Positions 7,329 to 59,488 of a DNA stretch of 64,000 nucleotides are shown here, in pieces. The notes beneath the pieces were generated by a model. That model was not told the origin of the DNA. It saw nothing but the letters and a program-made list of their open reading frames with translations, and searched no databases. The stretch lies in NCBI GenBank assembly GCA_965140415.1, contig OZ223209.1, forward strand, positions 5,056,001 to 5,120,000. Direction: 5' to 3'. How positions within the stretch are numbered: position 1 is the first letter of the stretch; each line of letters begins with the position of its first letter. The position numbers and the translations under genes are program-made. The DNA is from Myxococcota bacterium (lineage in GTDB: Bacteria > Myxococcota_A > SURF-8).

Positions 7329-7344
7329 TGGCATGCAGATTGCT
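7329..7344 (+). promoter_or_regulatory. sigma54 (-24/-12) promoter
   Basis: TGGCATG-CAGA-TTGCT matches TGGCACG-N4-TTGCW with exact spacing. Confidence 0.75.
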
Positions 7345-19952: not shown

Positions 19953-20645
19953 CTAGAGCCAATGCAGGGTGAACATCAGTGTGTAATAGGCGCCGACCGC
20001 CAGGAAGATCAGGGCGGTGAGACGTCGCATCCAACGTTCGATTGTGGTTAACAGGTTGAAAGCGCGGGAGAGTCGCTGGGTGGCGAAAGCCAACAGCAGA
20101 GAAAAAGCAACGACCGGAAGCGCCGTTCCGATGCCATAGACCAACGGCAAAAGCAGGCTGAATTGATGCTGTAAAGCCAGTGGAATCAAACTACCGAAAA
20201 ACAAGGCTGCGGAAACCGGACAAAAAGCCAGCGCGAACAAAACACCCAGAAGCAATGCGCCCCAGACACCCCATCGATCGGCACGTTGTTGCATCTGCTC
20301 GGAAACTCCGGAACTGCCGAAAGATATCGGCAGAACGTCCAGCAGCAATAACCCGGCCAGAATCAAAATCGGCCCCAATAAACGATTCATGTTTTGTTGC
20401 AGAAAATTGGCAACGATTGGAATGGAGGATAAACCTGCAATTACCAAAGCCGCCACCACGACATAGGCGACCATACGTCCCACGGTATACAGCAGACCGC
20501 TTATCAGCACCAGCCGGGGACGTTCAACGCGTTTGCCGATGTAGCTGATGGCGGTAATATTCGTAGCCAATGGACAGGGACTGATCGACGTCAGAATGCC
20601 TAGCCACAAGGCGCTACCAAGGCCAACCCAGAAAGCAAGCATCAC
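19953..20645 (-). CDS. ArsG-like / CcdA-DsbD-type membrane protein
   Basis: LGILTSISPCPLATNI and ALAFCPVSA, two intramembrane Cys-Pro motifs; ATGA overlap with the upstream gene. Confidence 0.8.
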   Translation of the reverse strand: MMLAFWVGLGSALWLGILTSISPCPLATNITAISYIGKRVERPRLVLISGLLYTVGRMVAYVVVAALVIAGLSSIPIVANFLQQNMNRLLGPILILAGLLLLDVLPISFGSSGVSEQMQQRADRWGVWGALLLGVLFALAFCPVSAALFFGSLIPLALQHQFSLLLPLVYGIGTALPVVAFSLLLAFATQRLSRAFNLLTTIERWMRRLTALIFLAVGAYYTLMFTLHWL

Positions 20646-21154
20646 ACGCCATCCAGGTAGTTGCGGATTTCAGCAGCGACATAAGCGATGTAATCGGGCG
20701 GATGATGGACGTGCTCCCAGATTTTGTCGCAGTTTTTCCATTTTATCTGCTTGCCGTCTTTGATCGCGGAGAGCACCAGGGATTTGGTGAAAAGCTGATA
20801 ATCCTGGGTGAAATGCTTGTTTTCTTCCCGATCCGTATTGACGACCTTCCATTGCAGCTTTCCGCTTTTCAACTCCTCGGCAAAGGTTTCCTTGATCGTC
20901 TGATCTGCCAGTTGCTCCATGGTCGTGCAGGTCTTGCAGCGGTAATCCCCGTGGAAATAATACACGATTACCGTGTCGGGAATCGTAACGACTGCCGGCT
21001 TTGCAGCTTTGGTATTGCTCGTATCGGCGGCAGCCTTCTGCGGCGTTGCAGATGGCACCGGCTCCGGCGTGGCTTGCGTCTCCGCCTGACTGCAAGCCGT
21101 CGTAAACGATAACAAGACAAAACACAGAATAAAAAGTGTGAAAAGATACTTCAT
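20642..21154 (-). CDS. ArsF-like exported thioredoxin-fold lipoprotein
   Basis: Lipobox TTAC; VYYFHG..RCKTC motif. Confidence 0.78.
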   Translation of the reverse strand: MKYLFTLFILCFVLLSFTTACSQAETQATPEPVPSATPQKAAADTSNTKAAKPAVVTIPDTVIVYYFHGDYRCKTCTTMEQLADQTIKETFAEELKSGKLQWKVVNTDREENKHFTQDYQLFTKSLVLSAIKDGKQIKWKNCDKIWEHVHHPPDYIAYVAAEIRNYLDGV

Positions 21155-21167
21155 GGTGTTTCCTTGT

Positions 21168-21404
21168 TTATACCAGCAGTTTTTTCAACGCATCCATCGG
21201 CGGCAACTTGCCCACACTTTTAACTTCGCCGTCCACCACCAATCCCGGCGTCATCATCACGCCCTTGGCCACGATCTGCTGAATGTCCTCCACCTTGACG
21301 ACTTCCGCCTCGATACCCATTTCCCCCACCGCCTGCTGCGTCAGTTGAAACAGCTTCTTGCATTTGGCGCAACCCGTTCCAAGAATCTCGATCTTTTTCA
21401 TCAT
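21168..21404 (-). CDS. Small redox-active disulfide protein (MTH895/ArsE-like thioredoxin family)
   Basis: IEILGTGCAKC, GVMMTPGLVVDG.V. Confidence 0.9.
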   Translation of the reverse strand: MMKKIEILGTGCAKCKKLFQLTQQAVGEMGIEAEVVKVEDIQQIVAKGVMMTPGLVVDGEVKSVGKLPPMDALKKLLV

Positions 21405-21412
21405 TCATCCTT

Positions 21413-22633
21413 CTAGTTTGCTTTATTCGTTTGAAAAGGAGTCCGTAAGAAGGCAAAGGCCAGCACGATGGCAGCCAATGCGGCGCAGGCCGCACCCAGT
21501 CCCAATGCAACGGAAGCACCGTACTGTTGCCACAGAAAACCCGCCATGACCGAAGCAGGCAAGGCCGACACGCCGATGGCGAGATGGTAAGCGCCGAAAC
21601 CTTTCCCGCGCTGCCTCGACTTCACCAGATCCGCCGTCAGCGCTTTTTCCGGGCCTTCGGTCAGGCCGTAGTACAGTCCGTACAAAACAAACAGCGGCCA
21701 GACCTGCCAGGCTGCCTGTGAAGACGCAAACAGGAAATACACCACGGCGTACAACATCCAACCGGCAAGAATCACCGGCACACGTCCGAAGCGGTCGGAC
21801 AGCCCCCCGCAGGGAGTAGCCCAGATGGTTTTACTCAGATGCAGCACAACCCACATAATCGGAGCTAGATAATCCGGCACGCCGAGTTCGTGAGCGTGCA
21901 GGATCAGAAAGACATCGGTCGAATTTCCAAGCGTAAAGAGAATCATGGCCACAAGAAACACACCGAACTGTCGCCGCTCCTGCTTGGTGGTTTCCGGCTG
22001 CGAAGATTCGTCAGCTTCTTTACTCACTTCACGCTTCGGTACCACTTCCTTTACAGCAAACACGACAAACGCGATGGTTAGCAGGCTGGGTACCGCCGCC
22101 AGCAGGAAAATCGTTCGCAGGTCCAGTTGCAAACCGTACAGCAGCGCAAAAGCGATCAGCGGACCGACCACCGCCCCGGCGTGATCCATCGCCCGATGAA
22201 AACCGAAGGCGCGTCCGCGCATATCGGGCCGAACCGACTCCGCCAGCAGCACGTCTCTGGGTGCGGTGCGAAGCCCTTTGCCAACGCGATCCAGACCGCG
22301 CAGAGTAACCAGATGCCAGCCTGCCGTAATCAAACCAAAAAGCGGACGAGTAGCCGAAGCCAGCACGTAACCGGCCACCGCCAGCGGCTTCCGGCGTTGC
22401 AGGCGGTCGGACCACCAGCCGGAGAAATACTTCAACAATGCCGCAACCGCTTCCGCGATTCCTTCCATCACACCTAGAATCTGCGGACCCAGACCAAGCG
22501 TCTGCGTGACGAACAACGGCAGCAGCGGTACGATCATCTCGCTGGCACTGTCGTTGAAAAAACTGACTAGACCTAATGCCTTGACCTGGCGCGGCAGTTT
22601 CTCTTTGCTGTTCTTTTTCGCATTCAATGGCAA
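21413..22633 (-). CDS. MFS transporter
   Basis: About 12 TM segments; D..SEM..PLLP, DRVGKGLRTAPRD, GRAFGFHRAMD..GA..GP. Confidence 0.9.
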   Translation of the reverse strand: MPLNAKKNSKEKLPRQVKALGLVSFFNDSASEMIVPLLPLFVTQTLGLGPQILGVMEGIAEAVAALLKYFSGWWSDRLQRRKPLAVAGYVLASATRPLFGLITAGWHLVTLRGLDRVGKGLRTAPRDVLLAESVRPDMRGRAFGFHRAMDHAGAVVGPLIAFALLYGLQLDLRTIFLLAAVPSLLTIAFVVFAVKEVVPKREVSKEADESSQPETTKQERRQFGVFLVAMILFTLGNSTDVFLILHAHELGVPDYLAPIMWVVLHLSKTIWATPCGGLSDRFGRVPVILAGWMLYAVVYFLFASSQAAWQVWPLFVLYGLYYGLTEGPEKALTADLVKSRQRGKGFGAYHLAIGVSALPASVMAGFLWQQYGASVALGLGAACAALAAIVLAFAFLRTPFQTNKAN

Positions 22634-22636
22634 CTC

Positions 22637-23806
22637 CTAGCTAAATAGCGCACCGTAAAGCAACCCGCTAAGCGTAGACATCACAATAACCAACAACACG
22701 TAAACCACGGTCTTCTTCGTTCCCAATACACTGCGAATGACCAGCATGTTCGGCAATGACAGTGCCGGACCGGCCAGCAATAACGCCAGCGCCGGACCTT
22801 TACCCATTCCCGCGCCGAGTAAACCTTCCAAGATCGGGACTTCCGTTAAGGTGGCGAAATACATGAACGCCCCCACCACCGAGGCAAACAGGTTCGCCCA
22901 CAATGAATTGCCACCCACCAGGCCGCTGACCCACTGGGAAGGGATGACGCCCTCGTGTCCCGGTCGGCCCAGTAGAAAACCGGCGGCCAGCACACCAATG
23001 AACAGCAGAGGCAGCACCATCTTGGCGTATTCCCAGGAGGAAGCGCCCCATTCGCTCAGTTCGTCACGCGTGAACCAGCGCCACAACACACCCGCCAGCA
23101 TCAGCAGCAATATCCCGCTGATCCACCATTTGGCGGCATAAATCAATCCCCAGATTCCGGCATCACCGGCCTGTGGTTGTCCCCAGTTGGCGAACACGAG
23201 AATTCCGACCATCAGGAAGAAATATAGCAGATCCTGTGCGCCGCTGCGCGCGGTCTGCATGGCGGGCATTTCCGGTAACGACGCCGCTTTTTCCGCTTCT
23301 TCCTTGCGGAAAATAAAGGCCATGCACAAACCGATCACGACCGAGAAGACGATTGCGCCGATGGCTCGCGCCAGCCCCAGTTCCGTTCCCAGAACACGCG
23401 CCGTTAAAATGATCGCCAGCACGTTGATGGCCGGGCCGCTGTATAGAAAGGCCGTCGCCGGTCCAAGCCCCGCGCCACGCGCGTAGATTCCGGCAAACAA
23501 TGGCAGCACCGTGCAGGAACAAACCGCCAAAATCGTTCCGCTGCTGGCGGCAACACCGTAAGCCACCGTGCGCTTGGCCTGTGCACCCAGATATTTCATT
23601 ACCGAAGCCTGCGAAACGAAACTGGCAATGGCTCCGGCGATGAAGAAAGCCGGAATCAGGCAAAGAATCACATGTTCGCGTGCATACCATTTCGATAACG
23701 CCAGCGCCTCATGCAAGGCACCTAAAAATCGGGCGTTTTCGACCGGCAGAAACCAGAGCGCCGCAAACACGGCGAGAAAGAGTAGAAAGAGTTTGCGTTC
23801 CGACAT
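22637..23806 (-). CDS. ArsP-like (DUF318) permease
   Basis: HVILCLIPAFFIAG, LAVCSCTVLPLF, FLYSGPAINV, YFATLTEVP, LLAGPALSLP. Confidence 0.88.
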   Translation of the reverse strand: MSERKLFLLFLAVFAALWFLPVENARFLGALHEALALSKWYAREHVILCLIPAFFIAGAIASFVSQASVMKYLGAQAKRTVAYGVAASSGTILAVCSCTVLPLFAGIYARGAGLGPATAFLYSGPAINVLAIILTARVLGTELGLARAIGAIVFSVVIGLCMAFIFRKEEAEKAASLPEMPAMQTARSGAQDLLYFFLMVGILVFANWGQPQAGDAGIWGLIYAAKWWISGILLLMLAGVLWRWFTRDELSEWGASSWEYAKMVLPLLFIGVLAAGFLLGRPGHEGVIPSQWVSGLVGGNSLWANLFASVVGAFMYFATLTEVPILEGLLGAGMGKGPALALLLAGPALSLPNMLVIRSVLGTKKTVVYVLLVIVMSTLSGLLYGALFS

Positions 23807-23821
23807 TAGGATATCTCCACC

Positions 23822-24661
23822 CTAGCCTTTACGACCTACGAACTTGGCACTGTAGATCTTTCCTTCCAACGCTTGCGCCACCCCCGCCACCATTTCCTTG
23901 GGGATTGCGCCTCCCCCGCAGCAGGCAAAGGCATCACGCGGAATTTCGGACTGCGCCAGGCTTGTGAGCTGCGACAAGTCGTACATGAAGCGCTCGGCTA
24001 CTTCGACCTGCTGCAACCCCGCGTTTTTCAATCCTTCCAGATAGTGTTGCTCGCTGATGGCCCCGCCGATACAGGCGCTGTACAATGTCATGCTTTCGCG
24101 CACCCAACCGGGCAAATCTTCCACCACGATATCCGAAATGCTGATGCGTCCACCCGGTTTGAGTACACGCGCGATTTCGGCAAAGACTTTGTCTTTTTCC
24201 GGTGACAGGTTGATCACACAGTTGGAAATGACCCAATCGACGGAATTGTCCTCGACCGGAAGCTGTTCGATGATGCCCTTACGGATTTCAACCTGCCCGG
24301 CACCGGCCTTCTCGATGTTGGCACGAGCATGAGCGATCATTTCGTCGGTCATATCCACACCGATCACTTTTCCGGCTGATCCCACTTTTTCCGCCGCAAT
24401 CAACAAATCGATACCAGCACCACTACCCAGATCCAGCACCGTCTGACCCGGTTCAACCTCACTGAAAGCCAATGGATTACCACAACCGAAACTGTTTTGC
24501 ACCGCATCCTGGGGCAAGACATTCAATTGGTTCTTATCGTAGCCCGCAGTCTGCACCGACACGCCTTGAGGCAAGCCTGGACCGCAGCAGCCACAACCTT
24601 GTGTAACGCTATTGCCGTAAAAGCCGGAAACCTGTTTGCGAATATCGTCTTGCTCATTCAT
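23822..24661 (-). CDS. arsM: Arsenite S-adenosylmethionine methyltransferase
   Basis: SFGCGNP, VLDLGSGAGID, ISNCVINL, CIGGA, plus N- and C-terminal CC pairs; GGAGG RBS before ATG 24661. Confidence 0.88.
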   Translation of the reverse strand: MNEQDDIRKQVSGFYGNSVTQGCGCCGPGLPQGVSVQTAGYDKNQLNVLPQDAVQNSFGCGNPLAFSEVEPGQTVLDLGSGAGIDLLIAAEKVGSAGKVIGVDMTDEMIAHARANIEKAGAGQVEIRKGIIEQLPVEDNSVDWVISNCVINLSPEKDKVFAEIARVLKPGGRISISDIVVEDLPGWVRESMTLYSACIGGAISEQHYLEGLKNAGLQQVEVAERFMYDLSQLTSLAQSEIPRDAFACCGGGAIPKEMVAGVAQALEGKIYSAKFVGRKG

Positions 24662-24728
24662 AGCTGGATTCCTCCGATACATGCAACGTTGTCTTTTAAC
24701 TTGGTTTAGCTAACCTAAAACAAGCTTC

Positions 24729-25040
24729 CTATTCCTTACGCAATTGCAGCACCCGGTTGGTGCAACTGAACATATCCAGCACGCAAGGCGTCAGCAGGCG
24801 ATAGCGCACCGTGTTGCCATCTTTGCGGTTGTCCACGATTCCCGCCGCCAGCAATACGGATAAATGCTTGGAAACCGTCGATATATCCAATTCGACCGCA
24901 GCGGCCAGATCGCCGACGGAGCACTCGCATTCTTTGAGCCAGTCAACGATCATCAGCCGGGCTTCATTGGCCAGCGCTTTATGAATGCGCGCCTGCTGTT
25001 TGTAGTCTCCGCGCGATTTTTTTGGTGTACAGCATGTCAT
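24729..25040 (-). CDS. arsR: ArsR/SmtB family transcriptional regulator
   Basis: KALA...RL.IV, C.V.DL, STVSKHL..L..AGIV; N-terminal CC and C-terminal PC..F.C. Confidence 0.9.
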   Translation of the reverse strand: MTCCTPKKSRGDYKQQARIHKALANEARLMIVDWLKECECSVGDLAAAVELDISTVSKHLSVLLAAGIVDNRKDGNTVRYRLLTPCVLDMFSCTNRVLQLRKE

Positions 25041-25075: not shown

Positions 25076-25385
25076 GTAAAAAAAGAATCGGTTTTGGTTT
25101 TTTTCTGACATTGCATGTGTGTTTCAGGTTGCCTTTCAATTTGTTTTCTGATAATACATATAGGTATACTTGGTTGACTGAAATCCAGCTCCTGCTCAAA
25201 CTCCTGCGATATTTACAATTCTTTCCTGATATCAAGCCCTTCCTGCCGATCTGATTCGCGTTCGAAATTTGCCGGATCAACTACAGCTTTTGCGAATCCC
25301 GATTTTCGATCCTCAACCAAGTCGATTGTCTCAGGTTCTTTCGCTTGCTGATTTCATGCAAGCTCACCACATTCAGGTGCAGCAA

Positions 25386-27194
25386 ATGAACAAATTGGAT
25401 AGCAAACTGGAAAGCTGGATTGCGGAACGATTGTTCGACACCGTACCGATGAGCATCGCCGTAATCGATCGCGACTTCAACCTGGTTGCCGCCAACAGCG
25501 CTTTCGAAGACCTTTTCGGGCATTGGCGCGGCAAGAAGTGCCACGCAGTGTATAAAAGCCGCGATTCGGTCTGCCCGCACTGCAAAGGCTCCCTTGCCTT
25601 CCAGGATAAGCAGCCGCAAGTCAATGAGGAAGTCGGCTATAATAAGGACGGCAAACCGACCCGCTACATCAAATACACCATCCCCATCTTCGACGAACAG
25701 GACGAAGTACCGTTTCTAGTTGAAATGTCTACGGATATCACCGAGGCGGACCAGACGAGGCGTGAACTGCAACTGCTGTTCGATCAGGTTCCATGCAACA
25801 TCACGGTGCTTGACCGGAATTTGAAAGTCGTGCGCACCAACAACAAGATTCATCAGACTTTCGGTGAGGCTATTGGCAAGTTCTGCTATCAGGTCTTTAA
25901 AAATCGTGAAACCGAATGCGAGGATTGCCCCGCGCGGCGCTCCTTTGAAGATGGCGGCATCCACAGTGCACAATCCATGGTCTGTAATGCGCGCGGGCAG
26001 CAAATGCACTTGCACGTCACCAGCGCGCCACTGGAAAGTGTGGACCGGCAGGTGGACCAAGTTGTTGAAATGGCTGTGGATATTACCGAAAATGTGGCGC
26101 TTCAGGATGAATTGCGCATTGCCCATTCCTTTTTGGAAACCTTAATCGCCGCCTCCATCGACGGAGTCATCGCCGTAGATGAGAACATGAACGTAACCGT
26201 TTTCAATGCCGCAGCCAGAAAGCTCTGCCAGGTGGCGGACAATCATTTCGTCACTTCCGCCGAGTTGGAACGCATGTTTCCCGAAGGCTTTCTAAATCAA
26301 GTCCATGCCGGAGTCGGACACGTTTATCTGCCTGATACCGAAATCCGTACCATGCGTGGCGAGGCGCTACCGGTTCGGTTGACGGGAGTTCAACTGCTGG
26401 ATAATGAACGTTACCTGGGAATGGCCTTCAGCATTCAGAACCTGACGCGCATCAAACAGTTGGAAAAAGCCAACCTGGACGCCGAACGACTGGCGGCGGT
26501 GGGACAAACGGTGGCGGGCCTGGCCCACGGCGTCAAGAACCTGATCGCCGGGCTGGAAGGCGGCATGTATATGCTCAATACCGGAATCAAGCTGGGGCAG
26601 TCGGAACGCATCGTGCAGGGCTGGGATATTCTGGATCGGAACATCGGGCGCATCGGGATGTTCGTAAAAGCCTTTCTGGGGTTCTCAAAAGGGCGCGAAA
26701 TCCAGGTGGAAAGCTGCGATCCGGCGTCAATTGCGGAAGAAGTCGTCCAGCTCTACTCGGCCAACGCCGAACGCGCCGGGATCGAATTGAACTACAAGGT
26801 GATCGGACAGGTTAAACCGGCCAATCTGGATAAAGAGGGCATTCACGAATGCCTGACAAATCTGGTCGGTAACGCCATCGACGCCTGTCAGATGAGCGAC
26901 AAAAGCGGCTGCCATGTAACGATACAGGTGCGAGATCGCGGCAATACGTTGATTTACGAGGTCACCGACGACGGCATCGGAATGGATTACGAAGTCAAAC
27001 GCAAAGTCTTCACCACGTTCTTTACCAGCAAGGGACTAGGCGGAACCGGCTTGGGACTATTGACCACGCGTAAAATCGTTCAGGAGCATGGCGGACGGAT
27101 CGATGTCGAAAGCGAGTTGAATCAGGGAACGACGTTTCGTATCGTGCTGCGGCGCGAACGTCTGCCCAAACCGATAAAACAGTCACCGCCGTAA
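25386..27194 (+). CDS. Cytoplasmic multi-PAS sensor histidine kinase
   Basis: Three PAS-like domains, two with Cys clusters; H-box AGLAHGVKN; N-box NLVGNAIDA; DDGIGM, FFTSK, GTGLGL; start uncertain (25356 or 25386). Confidence 0.92.
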   Translation: MNKLDSKLESWIAERLFDTVPMSIAVIDRDFNLVAANSAFEDLFGHWRGKKCHAVYKSRDSVCPHCKGSLAFQDKQPQVNEEVGYNKDGKPTRYIKYTIPIFDEQDEVPFLVEMSTDITEADQTRRELQLLFDQVPCNITVLDRNLKVVRTNNKIHQTFGEAIGKFCYQVFKNRETECEDCPARRSFEDGGIHSAQSMVCNARGQQMHLHVTSAPLESVDRQVDQVVEMAVDITENVALQDELRIAHSFLETLIAASIDGVIAVDENMNVTVFNAAARKLCQVADNHFVTSAELERMFPEGFLNQVHAGVGHVYLPDTEIRTMRGEALPVRLTGVQLLDNERYLGMAFSIQNLTRIKQLEKANLDAERLAAVGQTVAGLAHGVKNLIAGLEGGMYMLNTGIKLGQSERIVQGWDILDRNIGRIGMFVKAFLGFSKGREIQVESCDPASIAEEVVQLYSANAERAGIELNYKVIGQVKPANLDKEGIHECLTNLVGNAIDACQMSDKSGCHVTIQVRDRGNTLIYEVTDDGIGMDYEVKRKVFTTFFTSKGLGGTGLGLLTTRKIVQEHGGRIDVESELNQGTTFRIVLRRERLPKPIKQSPP

Positions 27195-27213
27195 CGCCAA
27201 GGAGTCGCATACC

Positions 27214-28959
27214 ATGGCGCGCGACAAGCAATGGATGTTATTTCTGGGGGCCGGGAGCAACAGCCTGCATCTGATGGCACAGGGGTTGGCGCAGACACAG
27301 CGATTAAATGGCCTGCAAGTCATCAGCGCCGCCATGACGCCCTCGGAACTGCATCCCATGGCCAACGAGGTGATGACACAGCTAGGGATCGAGTTGCAGC
27401 ATTTTCCCTTATTGACCCCTTTGGATATCGAGCTGTTCCATTTCGATCTTGTCATCACCCTGGGCGACTTCGACCGCTCCTGCCAACCGAATCTTCCCGG
27501 CATGCCGCCCCATATTCATTGGAATATTCCCGAGCCAAACGCCGATGACCCAGCCCAGCGCCTGCTTCAATTCCAGCAGGCACGAGATCGTTTGAAGGAT
27601 AAAATCTCTGCCTTGTACGATCAGGGCTTTTTCGAGGCCTTGTTTACCACGCGACGAAACCTGGATCTGATTCTCGACAACATGATCGAGGGCGTCATGG
27701 CTCACACCACCAATCGCCGCATTTTCTATTTCAACCAGGCCGCCGAACGCATCACCGGGCATCGTCGCGAAGATCTGTTAGGCAAAGACTGCCACGATGT
27801 GTTTCCGGGTCGTTTTTGCGGCGGGCAGTGCGACTTCTGCGAAGGCGGGCAAACAGAGCGGGGAAAAGTAAACCGTAAAGAAGTGATGTTCACCTGTCCA
27901 AACGGAGAACGACGCTTATTGGAAATGGCGACCATGCCGCTTTCCGGCCTGGGAGGAATGAATGTCGGCGCGTTGATTTCCTTTAAAGACAACACCGAAC
28001 TGGCGGCACTGAAACTTCGGCTGAAGCATCATCATTCGCTGGGAGGTCTGATCGGCAAAGACCCGAAAATGCTGGCGCTTTTCGATCAGATCCGCGAAGT
28101 CGGAAAGGTCAACGTCCCGGTATTGATCGAAGGCGAAAGCGGCACAGGAAAAGAACTGGTAGCCAACGCCATCCACGATATCGGAGAGCGGGCAAACAAA
28201 CCTTTTGTGGCCATCAACTGCGGCGCCCTACCGGAAGGCATCTTGGAAAGCGAATTGTTCGGGCACGTGCGCGGAGCGTTTTCCGGCGCGGTGCAGAATA
28301 AAAAAGGTCGCTTTGAACTAGCCGACGGCGGCACGATCTTTCTGGATGAAGTCGGGGAACTGTCACCCGCCATGCAGGTAAAACTGCTTCGGGTGTTGCA
28401 GGAGCAACGATTCGAGCGCGTCGGTGGAGAACATTCGATTTCCGTGGACGTGCGCGTGATCAGCGCCACCAATCAGAAACTGCGCCGCATGATGGAAACC
28501 CGTCGCTTCCGGCGCGACTTGTTTTATCGGCTTTGCGTTGTGCCGATTACGCTGCCGCCGCTACGCGAGCGCCGCTTGGACATCCCGATGCTCGTCGAAC
28601 ATTTTTTGGAGCGCATCGCGACCGAAACCGAGCGCAGCATCCTGCGACCTTCCACCGAAGCGCTGGACCTGTTGACTCAATATCCCTGGCCTGGAAACGT
28701 GCGCGAATTACGCAACTCGATTGAATACGCCTATGTCAAGTGCCATGGCGACACCATCCACCCGGAGCATCTGCCACCGGAAATCACGCAGCAACATCAA
28801 CGCCCGGTCGTCAAGCCCGGTCCTGCTTTGAAATATGACAAGGAAGAGATCATACTGGCCCTGGCGCAGGCCGAAGGCAACAAGCAACAGGCAGCCAAGC
28901 GACTCGGCATCGGTCGCGCAACCCTGTATCGCTACTTGAAAACCTTTCGCCTTAGCTGA
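27214..28959 (+). CDS. sigma54-dependent activator (bEBP): ArsC/LMW-PTP-like domain + PAS + AAA+ + Fis HTH
   Basis: GESGTGKE, ESELFGH..GAFSGA, FLDEV, RRDLFYRL, WPGNVREL, AAKRLGIGRATLYR; N-terminus resembles thioredoxin-type ArsC. Confidence 0.93.
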   Translation: MARDKQWMLFLGAGSNSLHLMAQGLAQTQRLNGLQVISAAMTPSELHPMANEVMTQLGIELQHFPLLTPLDIELFHFDLVITLGDFDRSCQPNLPGMPPHIHWNIPEPNADDPAQRLLQFQQARDRLKDKISALYDQGFFEALFTTRRNLDLILDNMIEGVMAHTTNRRIFYFNQAAERITGHRREDLLGKDCHDVFPGRFCGGQCDFCEGGQTERGKVNRKEVMFTCPNGERRLLEMATMPLSGLGGMNVGALISFKDNTELAALKLRLKHHHSLGGLIGKDPKMLALFDQIREVGKVNVPVLIEGESGTGKELVANAIHDIGERANKPFVAINCGALPEGILESELFGHVRGAFSGAVQNKKGRFELADGGTIFLDEVGELSPAMQVKLLRVLQEQRFERVGGEHSISVDVRVISATNQKLRRMMETRRFRRDLFYRLCVVPITLPPLRERRLDIPMLVEHFLERIATETERSILRPSTEALDLLTQYPWPGNVRELRNSIEYAYVKCHGDTIHPEHLPPEITQQHQRPVVKPGPALKYDKEEIILALAQAEGNKQQAAKRLGIGRATLYRYLKTFRLS

Positions 28960-28982
28960 TTTCATCCGATTCCCAACCCGAC

Positions 28983-29138
28983 TGTCTCAAGTCTCACATT
29001 CTCTGCAATTGAAGCAACATGAGACAGTTTGAGACACTACGCCAAATGCGAAAATCCTCCTGATTTAATAAGTCTGTCACTTGCAGATATTTATAGAACA
29101 ACTTGAGACAGCCGTGCTCCATCTTGAGAATCCGAGAC
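28983..29138. promoter_or_regulatory. Putative bEBP upstream activating sequences (TGTCTCA/TGAGACA repeats)
   Basis: TGTCTCA 28983, GTCTCA 28991, TGAGACA 29020, 29030 and 29104, GAGAC 29134; about 80-230 bp upstream of a sigma54 site. Confidence 0.65.
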
Positions 29139-29214
29139 GCTTTTATTGTCAGCGTTCTGCACACAAATATGAGTTTTCAACCTGTTTCCAGCTACATACG
29201 TAATTTATAAAAAC

Positions 29215-29230
29215 TGGTACGGCACTTGCT
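29215..29230 (+). promoter_or_regulatory. sigma54 (-24/-12) promoter
   Basis: TGGTACG-GCAC-TTGCT upstream of the operon starting at 29269. Confidence 0.8.
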
Positions 29231-29268
29231 TTTACAAAGCCTGTCTCAGACGCAAAGGAATTGCCATC

Positions 29269-29523
29269 ATGTTTGCGGACCCCATAAATGAAGCTCTGAT
29301 GGATGTGCTCCGGCTCTGTCGGCAGATGCTGCAACTGGCCGAGCGTGGGGATGCGCTTCGCCGCGATGCGGGCTGCGGCGTGGTTTTTGGAACGCTGCGC
29401 GACGATGCCTACAAGGTGCGGCGGCTGGCGGAACGGGAGCTTGAAAAGCACGGTCATGCGAACCGGTCCATGGAACCGGCTCTTAACGATAAGCCCAACG
29501 ACACTAGAAAAAAGGAAGAGTAG
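29269..29523 (+). CDS. Small helical hypothetical protein with a D.GCG motif
   Basis: AAGGA RBS; first gene after the sigma54 promoter; GD..R.DAGCGVVFGTLRD.AY. Confidence 0.75.
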   Translation: MFADPINEALMDVLRLCRQMLQLAERGDALRRDAGCGVVFGTLRDDAYKVRRLAERELEKHGHANRSMEPALNDKPNDTRKKEE

Positions 29524-29528
29524 CAGCC

Positions 29529-29909
29529 ATGAGCGAAAAGAAAAAAGTACTTCTGGTGGATGACGAACAGGATCTGCTGACCTTTTTATCCGCCCTGTTC
29601 ACCGATCACGGCTATCAGCCGGTCACGGCGCTGGATGGGTTGGAGTGCGTGCAAAAGGCGCGCAGTGAAAAACCAGATTTGATCACCCTGGATATGACGA
29701 TGCCCAAGCAATCCGGAGTCAAGACCTTTCGCGAATTGAAAGACGACCCGGAACTCAAAGACATTCCGGTGATCGTCATCACGGCTATCGGCGAGAACAT
29801 GGGCGACTTTTTAAAGGGTCGCCGCCAGATTCCGCCGCCGGAAGGCTTCATGTCCAAACCGATCGATCAGAAGGAACTGATGGAAATGGCCAAGCAGTTG
29901 CTGGGCTGA
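29529..29909 (+). CDS. Single-domain response regulator (DivK/DVU0259-like)
   Basis: VLLVDDE, KPDLITLDMTMP, IPVIVIT, SKP. Confidence 0.92.
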   Translation: MSEKKKVLLVDDEQDLLTFLSALFTDHGYQPVTALDGLECVQKARSEKPDLITLDMTMPKQSGVKTFRELKDDPELKDIPVIVITAIGENMGDFLKGRRQIPPPEGFMSKPIDQKELMEMAKQLLG

Positions 29910-29964
29910 AACCACCGGATTTACATGCGCTTAGACCGCGCATGGTTGAAACAGGAGAAACCGC

Positions 29965-30927
29965 ATGTCCGTTCTCGTATACGTCATTGCTTACCTTGCC
30001 ATTGCCGTCTTCGGTATCGCCGTCGTCGTGCGCTTCGTCGATTACCTGAAAAAGCCCATTCACGTTCGCTGGGAACTGTATCCCGTGGCCCACGAAGGCA
30101 AACGCGCTGAATACGGCGGCGGCTATCTGGAAGAAGTGGACTGGTGGCAGAAGAAACGCGAAGTCTCGCACATCGGCGAGTTGAAAGTCATGATTCCCGA
30201 GATTCTGCTTTTAAAAGCGGTCTGGGAACACAATCGCCCGCTGTGGTTCGTGACCTATCCCTTTCACCTGGGACTGTATCTACTGATGGCCTTTATCGGC
30301 CTGTTGGGACTGGGTGCGATTTTGCAACTGGCCGGTGTATCGCTGGGTTCGGGAGCGGCTCCCGGCACGGTCATCACCAATCTGGCCGGACTGCTCGGAC
30401 CGCTGGGGTTCATTATCGCACTCATCGGCGCACTGGGACTGTTTTTCAGACGCCTGACCAATGAAGACATGCGAGCGTATTCCGGTTTCGGTCACTTCTT
30501 CAACCTGGCTGCCTTTATTCTGGCGACGGGACTGGCTATCGCCGTGTGGTTGTCGGTAGAGAACTACGCCGCACAGATGATGGGCTTTATGGCCGGGCTG
30601 TTAACCTTTGGCACGGCGGCAAGCGCAAAAGCTGTTGGAACTCAGCCGTTGTTCGCCGCGCACCTGATTGTCGCCTTTGTACTGATGGCTTACATCCCGC
30701 TTACGCACATGTCGCATTTCTTCATGAAATACTTCCTTTACCACGATATCCGCTGGGGAGATGAGCCCAATATCAATACGCCTCATACCGATGCCAAAAT
30801 TCAAACCGTGTTGAATTACCCGGTGTCCTGGGCGGCTGGCCATATCGCCGGACATGGTCGCACCACCTGGGCGGAGGTCGCCACGTTCAATCCTGCACGC
30901 GATGTCGAAGAAGGGAAGGAGAAATAA
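29965..30927 (+). CDS. DsrM/HdrE/NarI-like membrane b-type cytochrome
   Basis: Multi-TM; RWELYPV.HE motif; candidate heme-ligating His in PFHLG, AHLIV and THMSHF. Confidence 0.8.
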   Translation: MSVLVYVIAYLAIAVFGIAVVVRFVDYLKKPIHVRWELYPVAHEGKRAEYGGGYLEEVDWWQKKREVSHIGELKVMIPEILLLKAVWEHNRPLWFVTYPFHLGLYLLMAFIGLLGLGAILQLAGVSLGSGAAPGTVITNLAGLLGPLGFIIALIGALGLFFRRLTNEDMRAYSGFGHFFNLAAFILATGLAIAVWLSVENYAAQMMGFMAGLLTFGTAASAKAVGTQPLFAAHLIVAFVLMAYIPLTHMSHFFMKYFLYHDIRWGDEPNINTPHTDAKIQTVLNYPVSWAAGHIAGHGRTTWAEVATFNPARDVEEGKEK

Positions 30928-30928
30928 C

Positions 30929-32542
30929 ATGACCTCCAAATCCAGAAAAGCCAAGTTGAGCGATGTAAGCAAAGGCAATGAACCCTTAACCCACGTCGCC
31001 GTAGAAGATCTGATGCCTTTACCGGGCATGGAGGCGGAAAAAGACTGGACGCCGCTGAAAGACAACGTCAAACAGGACTATGCCTGTTTGCTGGACGACA
31101 CCTCCATTCTTCCGATTCCGCGTCCCAAAACGCCGGAAGAAGAGCAGGAAATGGTCCGGAAGTTTCTTTCCGGCATGGAAAAGCTGTTCACCAAGGAAAA
31201 CAACTGGACCTTCCTGGCTCAGCTAACCACAACGATGGAGCACTGCGCCAAATGCAACACCTGCTCGGATGCCTGTCATCTGTATGAGGCCAGCGGCAAA
31301 AACGAAGTCTACCGCCCGACCTTCCGCACGGAGGTTTTCCGGCGCATCTACAAAAAGTACGTCAAGAAAGAAACGATGGCAGACTGGCGCAACGGTCCCA
31401 TCGATCTGACCTGGCAGGCCGTGGCACGATTGGGTGAAATGGCCTACCGCTGCAACCTATGCCGTCGTTGTGCGCAAACCTGCCCCATCGGGGCGGACAA
31501 CGGCCTGGTGGCGCGCGAAATCCGCAAGATCTTCAGCCAGGAAATGGGCATTCAAACGCCGGAACTGCACGAAAAAGGCTCGATGCTGCAATTGAAAACC
31601 GGCTCCTCCACCAACATGAACTCTCTTGTCGTAAAGGACAACATGGAGTTCATCGACGAGGATATCAATGAAATCAGCGGCTTCAAGTACGAAACGCCTT
31701 GGGATGTGGAGGGCGCGGACATCCTGCTGATCCACAACGCCGGTGAAATTCTGGCCTGGCCGGAGAACGTCGGCGCGTTCGGCATCATTTTCGAAGCGGC
31801 AGGCTTGTCCTGGACGTTAAGCAGCGACTTAGCCGCCTACGACAGCATCAACTACGGTGTTTTCTACGACGACGTTCAGTTCGCCCGCACGGCGATCCTA
31901 CAGGCGCAGGCAGCGGAGAAACTGGGAGTAAAGAAAATCGTGCTCGGCGAATGCGGCCACGCACACAAGGCATTGACCGTCATTGCCGACCGCGTGCTGC
32001 CTGAAGGCTTGAAAATCCCGCGCGAAAGCTGCTTCCCGCTATTGCGTGACATCGTTTTTAACGAGGGCGGAAAGTACAATGATATCAAGTTCGATCCGTC
32101 CCGCAACGACTTCCCGGTGACCGTACACGACCCCTGCAACCTGACGCGCCTGATGGGCATCATCAAGCCGCAACGCGACGTCTTGCATAAACTCTGTCCA
32201 CAGTTCAGAGAGATGACGCCGCACGGGGCGCACAACTACTGTTGTGGCGGCGGCAGCGGCTTTGCCATCATGGGGCGCAACAACATTCACGACTGGCGCT
32301 TCAAGGTTGCCGGTCGCAAGAAACTGGAACAGATTCTGAATGCCTTCTCCGATTGTCGTGGTCCTGAAACTAAGAAGTACGTATGTGCTCCATGCTCAAA
32401 CTGCAAAGGACAGATTCGCGATATCTTCGAAAATTACGGACTGTTCGAAAAGGAAAGTCTGATTTACGCCGGTTTGGTCGAACTCATCGTCAATGCGATG
32501 GTCGATGTCAATCCGGGCTTTATCAAATGGGAGCAGATGTAG
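30929..32542 (+). CDS. DsrK/HdrD-like Fe-S protein (two ferredoxin motifs plus CCG domain)
   Basis: CAKCNTCSDAC, CNLCRRCAQTC, GECGH, HDPCN, CCGGG, PCSNC; AAGGAG RBS before ATG 30929. Confidence 0.88.
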   Translation: MTSKSRKAKLSDVSKGNEPLTHVAVEDLMPLPGMEAEKDWTPLKDNVKQDYACLLDDTSILPIPRPKTPEEEQEMVRKFLSGMEKLFTKENNWTFLAQLTTTMEHCAKCNTCSDACHLYEASGKNEVYRPTFRTEVFRRIYKKYVKKETMADWRNGPIDLTWQAVARLGEMAYRCNLCRRCAQTCPIGADNGLVAREIRKIFSQEMGIQTPELHEKGSMLQLKTGSSTNMNSLVVKDNMEFIDEDINEISGFKYETPWDVEGADILLIHNAGEILAWPENVGAFGIIFEAAGLSWTLSSDLAAYDSINYGVFYDDVQFARTAILQAQAAEKLGVKKIVLGECGHAHKALTVIADRVLPEGLKIPRESCFPLLRDIVFNEGGKYNDIKFDPSRNDFPVTVHDPCNLTRLMGIIKPQRDVLHKLCPQFREMTPHGAHNYCCGGGSGFAIMGRNNIHDWRFKVAGRKKLEQILNAFSDCRGPETKKYVCAPCSNCKGQIRDIFENYGLFEKESLIYAGLVELIVNAMVDVNPGFIKWEQM

Positions 32543-32617
32543 CTGCCCTTCGAGGCATCGAAGTGCAGCTTGACGCTCCCCGAAGCAGCGAAAACCTTTG
32601 GATACAAGGAGGCAGTG

Positions 32618-33136
32618 ATGGCAACGGCGGCGGAAAAAAACATTCTGGTGGTCGAGGATGAGCCGGATGTGCAACTGGTGCTTTCCACGGCCTTACAGGA
32701 CGCGGGATTCTCCGTTCGCACGGCGAGTAACGGTCACGAGGCGTACAATCAGGTCAAGTTTGAAGTTCCCGATCTGATTACGCTGGATCTGGTGATGCCC
32801 GGCATGAGTGGTGCGTTGTTTTACAGCAAACTGCGCAAAAATACCAATTGGGGCAACATCCCCGTGATCGTCATTTCTGCTCACGCAAAAGATGAGTTCG
32901 GGCGCAAGGATTTCGAAGACATGATGCGCGGACGCGAATTCGAGCCACCGCAGGCGTTTCTGGAAAAACCGGTGGATACCGCCGACCTGATTCGGAAAGT
33001 GGCCGAGCTGTTGGAAGTGGAAGCCACCGAAATTCTGGCCGGACCCGAAGCGCAAACACGCGAAGAAATCCTCTCGAAACTCAATGGAGTGGATCTGGAT
33101 ACGCTCAAAAAGGTGCGCGAAGTACTAAACCGCTGA
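32618..33136 (+). CDS. Response regulator receiver protein with a short C-terminal extension
   Basis: ILVVEDE, PDLITLDLVMP, IPVIVISA, EKP; AGGAGG RBS. Confidence 0.9.
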   Translation: MATAAEKNILVVEDEPDVQLVLSTALQDAGFSVRTASNGHEAYNQVKFEVPDLITLDLVMPGMSGALFYSKLRKNTNWGNIPVIVISAHAKDEFGRKDFEDMMRGREFEPPQAFLEKPVDTADLIRKVAELLEVEATEILAGPEAQTREEILSKLNGVDLDTLKKVREVLNR

Positions 33137-59472: not shown

Positions 59473-59488
59473 TGGCACAATGCTTGCT
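59473..59488 (+). promoter_or_regulatory. sigma54 (-24/-12) promoter
   Basis: TGGCACA-ATGC-TTGCT, about 40 nt upstream of a GGAGG-preceded ATG. Confidence 0.8.

Follow-up and report, generated by a model that had tools for sequence, protein, structure and literature searches.

The question raised by this locus, seven genes within a 64,000-nt window of a Myxococcota genome (contig OZ223209.1), is which redox reaction its cytochrome b/CCG protein pair serves and why a kinase, an activator and two receivers accompany it. The answer favored here, with a probability of roughly 60%, is an accessory DsrMK-type membrane complex, dsrM2K2, equipped with its own control circuit and standing beside canonical dsrAB, dsrC and dsrMKJO. 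A preliminary description had read the block as a self-contained, sigma-54-driven module, and the seven genes, the promoter and the repeated TGTCTCA/TGAGACA sites (Table 1) all proved real and retained in other genomes, where the order small protein-receiver-cytochrome b-CCG protein-receiver was found again.

Table 1. Features of the dsrM2K2 locus (positions within the window).
Feature	Position	Strand	Remarks
Lone TGTCTCA site	25327..25333	+	59 nt before kinase ATG
PAS histidine kinase gene	25386..27194	+	ORF opens at 25269 (TTG); ATG at 25386 is the probable start
bEBP gene	27214..28959	+	PAS, Sigma54_activat, HTH_8
Enhancer region	28983..29110	.	four exact heptamers (28983, 29020, 29030, 29104) plus degenerate copies
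Sigma-54 promoter	29215..29230	+	TGGTACGGCACTTGCT, TGGTAC-N5-TTGCT; right -24/-12 spacing
Fifth TGTCTCA site	29242..29248	+	3' of promoter, 27 nt before small gene ATG
Small protein gene	29269..29523	+	84 aa; helical hairpin, outside known families
Receiver 1 gene	29529..29909	+	single domain
DsrM2 gene	29965..30927	+	NarI/DsrM-family cytochrome b; Nitrate_red_gam 43.1 bits
DsrK2 gene	30929..32542	+	Fe-S/CCG protein; two 4Fe-4S motifs, one CCG motif
Receiver 2 gene	32618..33136	+	ORF opens at 32570; conserved Met at 32618

The pair is the named, uncharacterised DsrMK paralogue dsrM2K2 and not an orphan enzyme; the earlier view that it differs from canonical DsrMK was upheld. Among the NCBIfam models, DsrK2 matched DsrK best (314 bits, cut-off 400; TmcB 179, HmcF 178) and DsrM2 reached 20 bits against the DsrM cut-off of 300, both below the NCBI equivalog level. 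In a tree of the CCG subunit (70 rows), the window's DsrK2 fell into a 24-row clade (SH-aLRT 99) within a 43-row DsrK branch (SH-aLRT 99), sister to but apart from the 12-row clade of canonical DsrK (99) and separate from an 18-row Hmc/Tmc/HdrD-like branch. Common clade membership does not settle the substrate of DsrM2K2. Joining the clade to core DsrK was rejected by the AU test (delta lnL 138.5). It includes A. fulgidus AAB90694.1 (row P0006), a DsrK paralogue whose correspondence to an A. fulgidus locus tag is assumed here. The same tree places the CCG subunit outside the Hmc/Tmc branch.

DsrK2 carries two ferredoxin-type 4Fe-4S motifs, the GECGH cysteine (Cys342) and a single complete CCG motif (C403, C438, C439, C489, C492), with all 14 cluster and catalytic cysteines invariant in 81 of 81 sequences. 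The GECGH cysteine also occurs in Hmc/Tmc-like alignment rows and is therefore not DsrK-specific, and the last CCG position is Cys in DsrK2 (CSNCKG) compared to Asp in the genome's canonical DsrK (CAIDKA). An hhalign comparison (96.9%, 223 columns) shows DsrM2 to be homologous to the DsrM of the same genome. H101 and H251 of DsrM2 align with NarI H56 and H205, and the position of NarI H66 is not a histidine; 2 of 79 DsrM2 sequences have a histidine at the NarI H187 position, and 59 have Q or Y there. Since only the H101/H251 pair is retained, DsrM2 probably binds one heme through a NarI H56/H205-type ligand pair, as judged from low-identity alignments in which the conserved H33, H43, H177, H260 and H293 could also ligate a cofactor; H33, H43, H260 and H293 accompany the strongly conserved cytoplasmic loops. 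No mention of a single-heme DsrM2 was found in the accessible portions of the dsrM2K2 paralogue literature.

The substrate had previously been regarded as unknown and possibly outside sulfate reduction, a view not borne out here. The window itself contains no dsr gene and no ORF with more than one CXXCH, in agreement with the absence of dsr and c-type cytochrome genes described before. However, a full dsr pathway is encoded elsewhere in the genome, with dsrA, dsrC and dsrMKJO at 1.29-1.46 Mb (the window spans 5.056-5.120 Mb) and dsrAB likewise outside the window, whereas the two subunits fall outside canonical DsrMK. Orthologues turned up only where the genome carries dsrA. In a phylum sample of 301 genomes they were present in 12, which are 12 of the 15 dsrA-positive and none of the 286 dsrA-negative ones; together with five of five orthologue genomes from outside the phylum, their loci being assigned to Planctomycetota (2), Desulfovibrionaceae, Spirochaetales and Acidobacteria, all 17 tested were dsrA-positive, these counts including kin and not being independent samples. 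Three dsrA-positive genomes of the sample have no orthologue, so it is dispensable. In one acidobacterial locus (L091), the genes immediately upstream of the pair show the dsrMK + dsrOP domain pattern (NarI-type cytochrome b, a weakly DsrK-like Fe-S protein, Fer4_11, NrfD). Because orthologues are confined to dsrA-positive genomes, the likely substrate of DsrM2K2 is DsrC-trisulfide or disulfide, inside dissimilatory sulfur metabolism.

The cytochrome b gene adjoins the DsrK2 gene in all 69 loci with enough flank, and a receiver lies directly 3' of DsrK2 in 35 of the 41 loci of the non-Desulfovibrionaceae group. In comparison, among 34 loci flanked by 5 kb on each side, an orthologue of the bEBP was present in only 14 and of the kinase in 16. 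Genomes labelled Desulfovibrionaceae have the pair by itself amid housekeeping genes with no signalling partner, neither receivers nor small protein (0/25 and 0/22), from which it follows that the control circuit is an add-on to the enzyme and not a part of it. The kinase and receivers of the acidobacterial loci are encoded between this pair and a further CCG protein, to which they may belong instead.

The promoter pattern TGGYAYN5TTGCW is found at three places in the window where 0.25 would be expected; 22 of 31 orthologous loci have a TGG-N9-TGC promoter upstream, and rpoN is encoded in this genome. Over the whole 64 kb, the TGTCTCA/TGAGACA heptamer is no more frequent than by chance (7 sites, 5.8 expected); its placement is clustered, with five of the seven sites within the 266 bases 28983-29248 and one more at 25327, a possible autoregulation site of the kinase gene. 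The four enhancer heptamers lie 105-232 nt upstream of the -24 element, and the fifth site recurs 24 to 42 nt (mostly about 27 nt) before the small gene in 11 of 31 loci. Upstream of the orthologous small gene, 53 heptamers were counted in 9,611 nt compared to 27 in the remaining 369,517 nt of those loci, a 75-fold enrichment, with at least one upstream heptamer in 24 of 31 loci.

As described earlier, the bEBP has no receiver domain (no Response_reg match). It consists of an ArsC/LMW-PTP-like domain (residues 1-140), a Cys-triad PAS domain (150-262), an AAA+ domain with GAFSGA and Walker motifs (Sigma54_activat, 235.6 bits) and HTH_8. The N-terminal profile matched the whole ArsC fold (1jl3, E 4.7e-16; 1jf8, E 3.4e-12), with the Cys10, Arg16 and Cys82 positions occupied by Gly (Ser/Ala in some), Leu and Gly and with the C89 position and a PPH..HW..DP stretch retained; to judge from these residues, this previously unannotated domain is catalytically dead. 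Pfam LMWPc scored 16.1 bits on the window's bEBP, below its 23.2 cut-off, and was absent from the precomputed annotation of its relatives (0/43). The PAS triad C193, C202 and C206, joined by a fourth C209, follows the OrpR spacing C-x8-C-x3-C, the +2 residue being acidic, and lines up with the corresponding triad of another bEBP, encoded next to the orp-like cluster of this genome (42% identity). The kinase is soluble, with three PAS domains, H-box His420 and HATPase_c; the cysteines of PAS1 (Cys91/102/105) and PAS2 (Cys176/206/217/220) are kept in 13/13 and 12/13 orthologues. The cysteine sets of these two N-terminal PAS domains are similar to that of the activator's PAS.

Receiver 1 has conserved D12, D55, T85 and K110; receiver 2 has D30, D73 and K133 (ORF numbering) and extends into a 45-residue tail that closes with the conserved helix D-x-x-T-L-K-K-I/V-R. 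Within NCBIfam, both score highest with DVU0259_DivK (99 and 84 bits), short of its cut-off of 160. In P0058 and P0207, a receiver and a related CCG protein form one polypeptide, and the window's genome encodes a paralogous operon HK-REC-flavoprotein-MvhD/Fer4-CCG. The 84-aa protein, with the core motif MLELADxGDxxRxDxGCGVVYGxLRDxAYKIR, matched no Pfam or NCBIfam family and is predicted to form a helical hairpin (helices 5-29 and 34-64, pLDDT 81.5). The GCG motif noted previously is present here, but its cysteine is found in 25 of 32 aligned sequences and replaced by Ser in 7; the lack of conservation argues against a dedicated dithiol carrier.

In the working model, DsrM2, a membrane cytochrome b, and DsrK2, with two cubane clusters plus a single catalytic cluster of the CCG type, would link the menaquinone pool by electron transfer to a sulfur-bridged dithiol in the cytoplasm, most likely the DsrC trisulfide/disulfide reduced by canonical DsrMKJOP. 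With a ligand pair equivalent to that of the cytoplasm-side heme of NarI, a one-heme DsrM2 might be less electrogenic than DsrM, or non-electrogenic. The adjacent receiver-less bEBP would bind the TGTCTCA/TGAGACA enhancer and activate the sigma-54 promoter of the operon; by analogy with OrpR, it may be active only while its Cys-triad PAS holds an Fe-S cluster, i.e. at low redox potential, and the dead ArsC-like domain could add a second input. The kinase might phosphorylate both single-domain receivers made from the induced operon, which could in turn contact and modulate DsrK2 and/or the bEBP and the small hairpin protein. Feedback on transcription, proposed earlier, is a possibility too. On this view the locus holds a spare version, conserved and under its own switch, of the membrane complex for the last step of sulfite reduction in sulfate reducers, and its putative redox-sensing control and apparent loss of one heme offer a handle on why spare dsrMK copies persist.

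A quinol:disulfide oxidoreductase with a non-DsrC substrate, working outside sulfate reduction, for example in thiol or arsenic-thiol detoxification with the ArsC-like domain as sensor, is unlikely. It would fit the scores below the DsrK and DsrM cut-offs, the distinct clade, the ArsC-like domain on the activator and an ArsR/methyltransferase/ArsP/MFS operon directly upstream on the opposite strand, as well as a count in the accessible part of PMC10504309, where no DsrAB was identified for 7 of the 74 assemblies of bacteria in the basal dsrMK-only clade. Yet the ars neighbourhood is not conserved (one weak ArsP match, 25%, among 80 loci), the ArsC-like domain lacks its catalytic equivalents, the small protein is no dedicated carrier, and the orthologue-bearing genomes tested are all dsrA-positive.

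Two further readings are each still less probable. Oxidation of DsrC-bound or another persulfide or thiol with menaquinone, induced on need in sulfur disproportionation or sulfide oxidation, appears improbable: DsrMK(JOP) runs in both directions in nature (accessible parts of PMC10504309 and PMC6018796), the CSNCKG/CAIDKA difference lies at the active site and a separate regulator suggests a conditional role, but direction is not readable from sequence and the OrpR analogy predicts induction at low, not high, potential. There is an equally slim chance that a one-heme DsrM2K2 senses how far the quinone pool or DsrC is reduced and signals by contact to the receivers, kinase and bEBP, tuning sulfur respiration. 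The flanking of the pair by receivers within one operon, the CCG-receiver fusions, the lost second-heme ligands and the repeated kinase-receiver-CCG design in this genome are consistent with such a role. However, invariant catalytic and cluster cysteines and 61-86% identity across phyla fit a strongly selected enzyme, the Desulfovibrionaceae-labelled pair has no signalling partner, and the extra A. fulgidus dsrMK copies are reported to be constitutive and highly expressed (PMC3949148, as far as accessible).

Compared with known systems, the N-terminal profile of the bEBP matches the whole fold of the thioredoxin-coupled ArsC of Bacillus subtilis (1jl3) and Staphylococcus aureus (1jf8), with Cys10/Arg16/Cys82 replaced and the domain fused to a transcription activator. 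Hmc and Tmc complexes also have nearby regulators (hmc-rrf1-rrf2; a DVU0259-type receiver near tmc) and share with this module a CCG Fe-S subunit and NarI-type cytochrome b with single-domain receivers, best matched by DVU0259_DivK; unlike them, the module has no multiheme cytochrome c, its CCG subunit belongs to the DsrK branch and its receivers stay below the DVU0259 cut-off. OrpR (DVU2106), an Fe-S PAS sigma-54 activator of Desulfovibrio vulgaris (PMC8359166), has the same PAS, AAA+ and HTH arrangement without a receiver and the same triad with the acidic +2 residue, whereas the window's bEBP, for which cluster binding is predicted by analogy, has the extra 140-residue dead ArsC-like domain, C209, a different target operon and a different enhancer motif.

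DsrMKJOP, a menadiol:DsrC-trisulfide oxidoreductase (Barbosa 2024, PMC10861901, accessible part), likewise combines a NarI-type cytochrome b with a cytoplasmic subunit bearing two 4Fe-4S motifs, the GECGH Cys and one CCG motif and is tied to dsrAB genomes, but the module lacks DsrJOP, forms a separate clade with sub-cut-off scores, and in DsrM2 the second TM2 His and first TM5 His of DsrM are not conserved. The closest counterparts are the dsrM2K2 or dsrMK-only copies of sulfate reducers already in print (Hausmann 2018, PMC6018796; Neukirchen 2023, PMC10504309) and the extra dsrMK copies of A. fulgidus, the AF0543-0547 set (PMC3949148, PMC10861901), all as covered by the accessible parts of these papers. 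The locus shares with the dsrM2K2 paralogues the two-gene unit of cytochrome b and DsrK-like protein without dsrJOP, the co-occurrence with full dsrMKJO(P) and reductive dsrAB, and a clade in common with the A. fulgidus paralogue; as in AF0543, AF0544 and AF0547, the last CCG position is Cys and not Asp (PMC10861901, same part). A control circuit around dsrM2K2 was not found in the literature searched, and it is in this that the locus departs from the printed examples: an own sigma-54 operon with two receivers and a small protein, together with a PAS kinase and bEBP.

The cytochrome b and the Fe-S/CCG protein of the module (DsrM2 and DsrK2, together the pair) are best read as a DsrMK paralogue of the dsrM2K2 type, to which we assign a probability of roughly 0.85. 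The nearest NCBIfam family of DsrK2 is DsrK (NF045796), matched with 314.1 bits (312.4 in the genome search) and without reaching the equivalog cut-off of 400; the canonical DsrK copy of the same genome scores 733.2 bits, and the values of DsrK2 for TmcB and HmcF are 179 (cut-off 735) and 178 (cut-off 750), respectively. DsrM2 gave 20.5 bits with the DsrM equivalog NF038037 (cut-off 300, the genome's own DsrM 501.6) and 43.1 bits with Pfam Nitrate_red_gam. By hhalign (96.9%) it is nevertheless a homologue of the genome's DsrM, and its family profile matches Escherichia coli NarI at E 5e-5; by these profiles, DsrM2 shares the homologous five-helix core of the DsrM/NarI/HdrE cytochromes. No close solved structure was found for DsrM2 or DsrK2. 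The representative proteins P0052 and P0093 are DsrM-DsrK fusions, and a search for much longer fused DsrK2 forms (941-2685 aa) returned none, which is weak evidence.

The phylogenetic tree comprised 70 rows, namely 15 for the window's protein and its orthologues, 6 genome paralogues and 49 full-length representatives that came from an exhaustive HMMER search and took their labels from NCBIfam scores, with about 100 fragments among the 150 matches listed excluded. The DsrK branch (43 rows, SH-aLRT 99) holds a canonical 12-row clade (99), to which all rows exceeding the DsrK cut-off belong, and a 30-row group (92) that includes the 24-row clade of the window's protein (99). This clade is sister to canonical DsrK and not inside it, and HmcF, TmcB and the other CCG paralogues of the genome form a separate 18-row branch. 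Forcing the clade onto three core DsrK rows, a group named post hoc from the tree, cost 138.5 log-likelihood units (p-AU 1.9e-70). Scores below the equivalog cut-offs and a clade of its own agree with the preliminary description, which had set the pair apart from canonical DsrMK. The window's clade also contains an Archaeoglobus fulgidus protein (P0006, AAB90694.1 / O29707; 48% identical), which, by locus numbering, is presumably one of AF0543-0547.

Regarding the cofactor sites, the four histidines that ligate the two hemes of NarI, H56/H205 on the cytoplasmic and H66/H187 on the periplasmic side, are only partly kept in the DsrM2 family. H101 of DsrM2 aligns with H56 (His in 73 of 79 orthologues, the rest being gaps) and H251 with H205 (76 of 79). 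The H66 column has no His among the orthologues, and the H187 column has His in two of the 79, including the window's DsrM2, with 59 showing Q or Y. Because conservation is limited to the equivalents of H56 and H205, we infer that DsrM2 binds a single heme and that the outer heme is missing, which would make quinol oxidation less electrogenic or non-electrogenic. Five further histidines (H33, H43, H177, H260 and H293) are nearly invariant in conserved loops predicted to be cytoplasmic, and might ligate something else. DsrK2 has two cubane motifs of the CX2CX2CX3C(P) type (C106/109/112/116 and C175/178/181/185) as well as C342 (GECGH) and the CCG motif residues C403, C438/439 and C489/492, all of them invariant in 81 of 81 sequences. 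The GECGH cysteine, singled out in DsrK in the available text of PMC10861901, was rejected as a DsrK-specific mark, the Hmc/Tmc-like rows of the alignment carrying the same Cys. The last CCG residue is Cys in DsrK2 (CSNCKG) and Asp in the canonical DsrK of the genome (CAIDKA), the same Asp/Cys contrast as the accessible part of that paper gives for AF0502 versus the three A. fulgidus paralogues (PMC10861901).

The suggestion that the pair might work outside sulfate reduction was not supported by a search of the genome for dsrAB and dsrC. The genome holds eight DsrK-like matches, the best of which (733 bits), at 1.29 Mb, shares a gene row with DsrM (501.6 bits), DsrJ (171.8) and DsrO (309). At 1.45 Mb are dsrA (580.9 bits), next to a dsrB-like gene, and the single dsrC. 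Across 301 genomes sampled evenly from the phylum, with an orthologue called at E <= 1e-100 and dsrA above its cut-off, the orthologue occurred in 12 genomes and dsrA in 15. All 12 were among the 15, leaving three dsrA-positive genomes without the orthologue and none of the 286 dsrA-negative genomes with it; this co-occurrence is given without a statistic, and kin genomes are not independent. Five further genomes, reached via loci labelled Planctomycetota (2), Desulfovibrionaceae, Spirochaetales and Acidobacteria, were all dsrA-positive. Such a pattern speaks against a role outside dissimilatory sulfur metabolism. As dsrC is present in a single copy, the substrate is not a dedicated second DsrC. 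Sulfur bound to DsrC itself appears the more probable substrate of the pair. With dsrA in only 15 of the sampled genomes, this one belongs to a minority dsr-bearing lineage in a phylum mostly without the pathway; its nearest public MAGs carry the Myxococcota label.

The seven genes of the module all lie on the + strand and span 25.3-33.1 kb of the window, the five from 29269 to 33136 being closely spaced. Their coordinates are compiled in the table below together with those of the flanking genes.

Coordinates of the module and of its neighbours in the window (nt)
Feature	Position	Strand	Remark
DsbD_2 membrane protein	19953-20645	-	ars-like operon
Unassigned 170-aa ORF	20642-21154	-	ars-like operon
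MFS transporter	21413-22633	-	ars-like operon
ArsP permease	22637-23806	-	ars-like operon
SAM methyltransferase	23822-24682	-	ars-like operon
ArsR-type repressor	24729-25040	-	ars-like operon
Histidine kinase, soluble, three PAS domains	ORF 25269-27194	+	probable ATG 25386
Sigma-54 activator (bEBP)	27214-28959	+	starts 19 nt past kinase gene
Small 84-aa protein	29269-29523	+	after 309-nt gap behind bEBP gene
Receiver 1, single domain	29529-29909	+
DsrM2, NarI-family cytochrome b	29965-30927	+
DsrK2, Fe-S/CCG protein	30929-32542	+	ATG one base beyond DsrM2 stop
Receiver 2	ORF from 32570, end 33136	+	conserved Met 32618
Subtilase, 981 aa	33477-36422	+	Peptidase_S8, 125.8 bits; 340 nt past receiver 2

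Conservation was surveyed with one genome per species. The CCG protein had 262 relatives, and the analysis covered their 80 best loci (61-85% identical). The cytochrome b gene adjoins the DsrK2 gene in 69 of 69 loci having at least 1 kb upstream. Among the 47 loci without a Desulfovibrionaceae, Planctomycetota or Acidobacteriota label, a receiver gene follows 3' of the CCG gene in 35 of the 41 with enough flank, and the small gene and the upstream receiver were found in 26/34 and 24/34 loci, respectively. A kinase orthologue is present in 16 and a bEBP orthologue in 14 of the 34 loci with 5 kb on each side, up- or downstream of the operon. The block is accordingly conserved in other genomes, as had been anticipated for a self-contained module; a Desulfosudis oleivorans MAG (L018) is among those whose locus has it. 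Loci labelled Desulfovibrionaceae, mostly Mailhella, carry the pair alone among housekeeping genes (receiver 0/25, small gene 0/22). Since they keep the pair without the circuit and the cytochrome b is always adjacent, the pair is an ancient core and the control circuit a conserved add-on of one large group. At one of these loci (L073:8836-9579 and L073:4189-5766), the stand-alone pair is flanked by a gene of the TauE/SafE sulfite-exporter family and by one for a fusion of uroporphyrinogen-III methyltransferase and synthase, of the siroheme or cobalamin route; the neighbours differ at other Mailhella loci. The subtilase gene next to the module is absent beside it in all 80 related loci.

The promoter region ahead of the small gene contains both elements previously reported for it, a sigma-54 promoter and repeated heptamers TGTCTCA/TGAGACA. 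The promoter TGGTACGGCACTTGCT lies at 29215-29230. Over the window the pattern TGGYAYN5TTGCW has three matches against 0.25 expected, a number reached by none of 100 shuffles; the other two exact matches are at 7329-7344 and 59473-59488 on the + strand. A TGG-N9-TGC element stands 26-85 nt before the start of the small gene in 22 of 31 orthologous loci, and rpoN was found in the genome. Over the whole window the heptamer is not over-represented (7 found, 5.8 expected). Five of the seven copies cluster within 28983-29248, and a sixth lies 59 nt ahead of the kinase ATG. DNA upstream of the 31 orthologous small genes held 53 heptamers in 9,611 nt, compared with 27 in 369,517 nt for the rest of the same loci, a 75-fold higher density, with at least one copy in 24 of the 31 loci. 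The copy approximately 27 nt ahead of the small-gene ATG, downstream of the promoter, recurs in 11/31 loci at -24 to -42. Scans for sigma-70 promoters and terminators between 24900 and 33700 remained at chance level (8 vs 5.0 expected and 15 vs 11.4, respectively).

A Pfam domain search of the bEBP found PAS, Sigma54_activat (235.6 bits), AAA lid and HTH_8 domains, and it lacks a receiver domain, as already noted in the preliminary description. Its contact loop and Walker motifs are intact (GAFSGA at 354, GESGTGK at 307, DEVG at 378), and activation of the operon by this adjacent bEBP via the heptamer sites is likely. In the PAS domain, 21 of 22 orthologues share C193, C202, C206 and C209, and D195 as well; the spacing is C-x8-C-x3-C, with the Asp two residues past the first Cys. 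According to the available part of PMC8359166, the 4Fe-4S PAS domain of OrpR needs C52, C61, C65 and D/E54 for redox sensing; the triad of the bEBP has the same spacing and acidic residue, and an Fe-S cluster is predicted for it. In the kinase, C91/C102/C105 of PAS1 are kept in 13/13 orthologues and C176/C206/C217/C220 of PAS2 in 12/13. Redox sensing by Fe-S PAS domains is slightly favoured by these patterns. Another bEBP of the same genome, 42% identical and with the triad aligned, belongs to an orp-like cluster (C1:2853078-2859471, locus L095:12078-18471), in which CGGC, NUBPL/MinD-type Fe-S ATPases and Nitro_FeMo-Co proteins are encoded behind this OrpR-like PAS-bEBP; a sigma-54-like element occurs there on the minus strand near L095:17006.

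Pfam at E <= 0.01 assigned nothing to residues 1-140 of the bEBP. These have the ArsC/LMW-phosphatase fold, the profile of 21 orthologues matching Bacillus subtilis ArsC over the whole domain (E 4.7e-16), with weak LMWPc matches in 17/21 members. The domain has 43 database relatives, all of them bEBPs of about 580 aa built in the same way, and LMWPc is missing from every one of their precomputed annotations. Compared with the thioredoxin-coupled ArsC/LMW-PTP enzymes, the fold is shared, whereas the CX5R nucleophile and the Cys82/Cys89 relay are lacking: the positions of Cys10 (the P-loop Cys), Arg16 and Cys82 are Gly, Leu and Gly, and the Cys89 equivalent (C90, 21/22) is kept along with an invariant GMPPHxHW stretch. 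Because the catalytic Cys10, Arg16 and Cys82 are replaced, the domain is classed, on its residues, as a putative pseudoenzyme with a sensor function. An ars-like operon (19953-25040) is encoded divergently from the kinase gene; this adjacency is not conserved in other loci, and we regard it as chance.

The acidic pocket, phospho-acceptor Asp, Thr/Ser and Lys are intact in both receivers, whose best NCBIfam family is DVU0259_DivK (NF045717; 99.1 and 83.6 bits, below the cut-off of 160). They had been described as output-less; receiver 2 is not quite so, because its 45-residue tail ends in a conserved helix. Lone receivers are tied to CCG enzymes by the receiver gene 3' of DsrK2, by a CCG protein from the Hmc/Tmc-like branch that carries a full receiver as a fused domain (P0058/P0207, residues 460-580) and by a paralogous operon of the same genome (C1:2844575-2853003, L095:3029-12007). 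In this operon, at 2.845-2.851 Mb, genes for a PAS kinase (38.5% identical) and a lone receiver precede those for a Pyr_redox_2 flavoprotein, a Fer4 + FlpD/MvhD protein and a CCG protein; a PocR-domain protein is also encoded, and a divergent PAS-bEBP has the same Cys triad. Another Hmc/Tmc-like CCG protein is fused to a C-terminal DsrC-like domain (P0071, 449-537). The acidobacterial locus L091:921-12649 (also L079, L081) starts with an RsbRD_N protein, a NarI-type cytochrome b, an Fe-S protein of weak DsrK likeness, Fer4_11 and NrfD, that is, the dsrMK + dsrOP domain pattern. The dsrM2K2 orthologues come directly after these, with a PAS kinase, two receivers and another CCG protein behind them. 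Its layout is compatible with a kinase and receivers serving the neighbouring CCG protein; that additional CCG protein weakens the gene order as evidence that, where there is no bEBP, the receivers work for the pair. Phosphorylation of the receivers by the kinase seems fairly probable, while we doubt that their action extends beyond transcription to the enzyme.

The small protein is modelled as a confident helical hairpin (pLDDT 81.5) with invariant D28, G41, R44, D45, Y48 and R51. It was considered as a DsrC-like dithiol substrate and rejected, as neither Cys is conserved, the Cys of the GCG motif being Ser in 7/32 sequences. Foldseek of the model against the PDB gave nothing at E <= 0.001 and only generic helical hairpins, Pfam at E <= 10 on 26 orthologues no credible family, and a protein atlas only unnamed Thermodesulfobacteriota clusters at 0.88-0.89. 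At two unrelated loci of the 31 (L034:5377-6015, L050:48-680), the small protein and receiver 1 stand in one frame, either as real fusions or through a lost stop or read-through in low-coverage assemblies, a weak hint that the two work together.

In the mechanism we propose, the Fe-S-loaded bEBP would, at low redox potential, open the sigma-54 promoter from the heptamer sites. The induced operon would yield a second DsrMK, probably with one heme, linking menaquinol to DsrC-trisulfide or a disulfide, and would also make the two receivers and the hairpin protein. The kinase would phosphorylate the receivers, which would then adjust the enzyme or its activator. A more far-reaching version, which we consider quite improbable, has phosphorylation directly controlling the respiratory enzyme: the phosphorylated lone receivers would dock on DsrK2 (receiver 2 via its C-terminal helix, receiver 1 with the hairpin protein) and switch on or off a DsrM2K2 bypass, one-heme and non-electrogenic, through which DsrC-trisulfide would be reduced. 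Under an over-reduced quinone pool the cell could thus give up energy yield for rate, and the dead ArsC-like domain would read a sulfur or oxyanion signal.

This locus bears on the question why sulfate reducers have several DsrMK copies, one DsrMK paralogue class being, to judge from its own promoter and its own sensors, conditionally expressed. If the single heme is real, this paralogue would differ from DsrM in energy coupling, which has a bearing on the debate over the thermodynamics of DsrC reduction by menaquinol. The literature covered, which leaves most subscription journals and supplements outside, yielded no description of four features: the sigma-54/bEBP/kinase/receiver circuit dedicated to the pair, the pseudo-ArsC domain of the activator, the hairpin protein and the loss of heme ligands. 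This gene neighbourhood may already appear in the supplementary trees and tables of PMC10504309. Beyond the enzyme, the module adds a second family of OrpR-like, putatively Fe-S-binding PAS regulators and an unannotated pseudo-ArsC sensor domain, and it is a further example of the PAS kinases and lone receivers that recur, so far unstudied, with HdrD-like enzymes.

The enzyme pair itself is an already known, named but uncharacterised paralogue, and Pereira 2011 is reportedly the source that other papers cite for 'dsrMK paralogs'. It differs from HmcEF and TmcCB: DsrK2 scores far below the HmcF and TmcB cut-offs, it stands on a separate tree branch, and a partner multiheme cytochrome c is absent from the window, which has no ORF with more than one CXXCH. 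HdrD of HdrED has two complete CCG motifs in the accessible text of PMC10861901, whereas DsrK2 has one, only C342 being left of the other. Among DsrMK-type complexes only DsrMKJOP has been assayed, as far as the available portion of the same paper goes (PMC10861901). Extra dsrMK copies at AF0543-AF0547 are recorded for A. fulgidus in the available parts of PMC3949148 and PMC10861901, and paralogues termed 'dsrM2, dsrK2' are called 'not uncommon in SRM' in that of PMC6018796. A basal DsrK clade in the accessible text of PMC10504309 unites archaeal sequences with deltaproteobacterial and clostridial dsrMK-only copies, whose deltaproteobacterial owners also carry dsrMKJOP. The window's pair consists of adjacent genes with no dsrJOP beside them, in a genome with dsrMKJO and dsrAB elsewhere, and DsrK2 groups with an archaeal DsrK paralogue and not with the bacterial DsrK of dsrMKJOP; the pair fits the published dsrMK-only / dsrM2K2 description.
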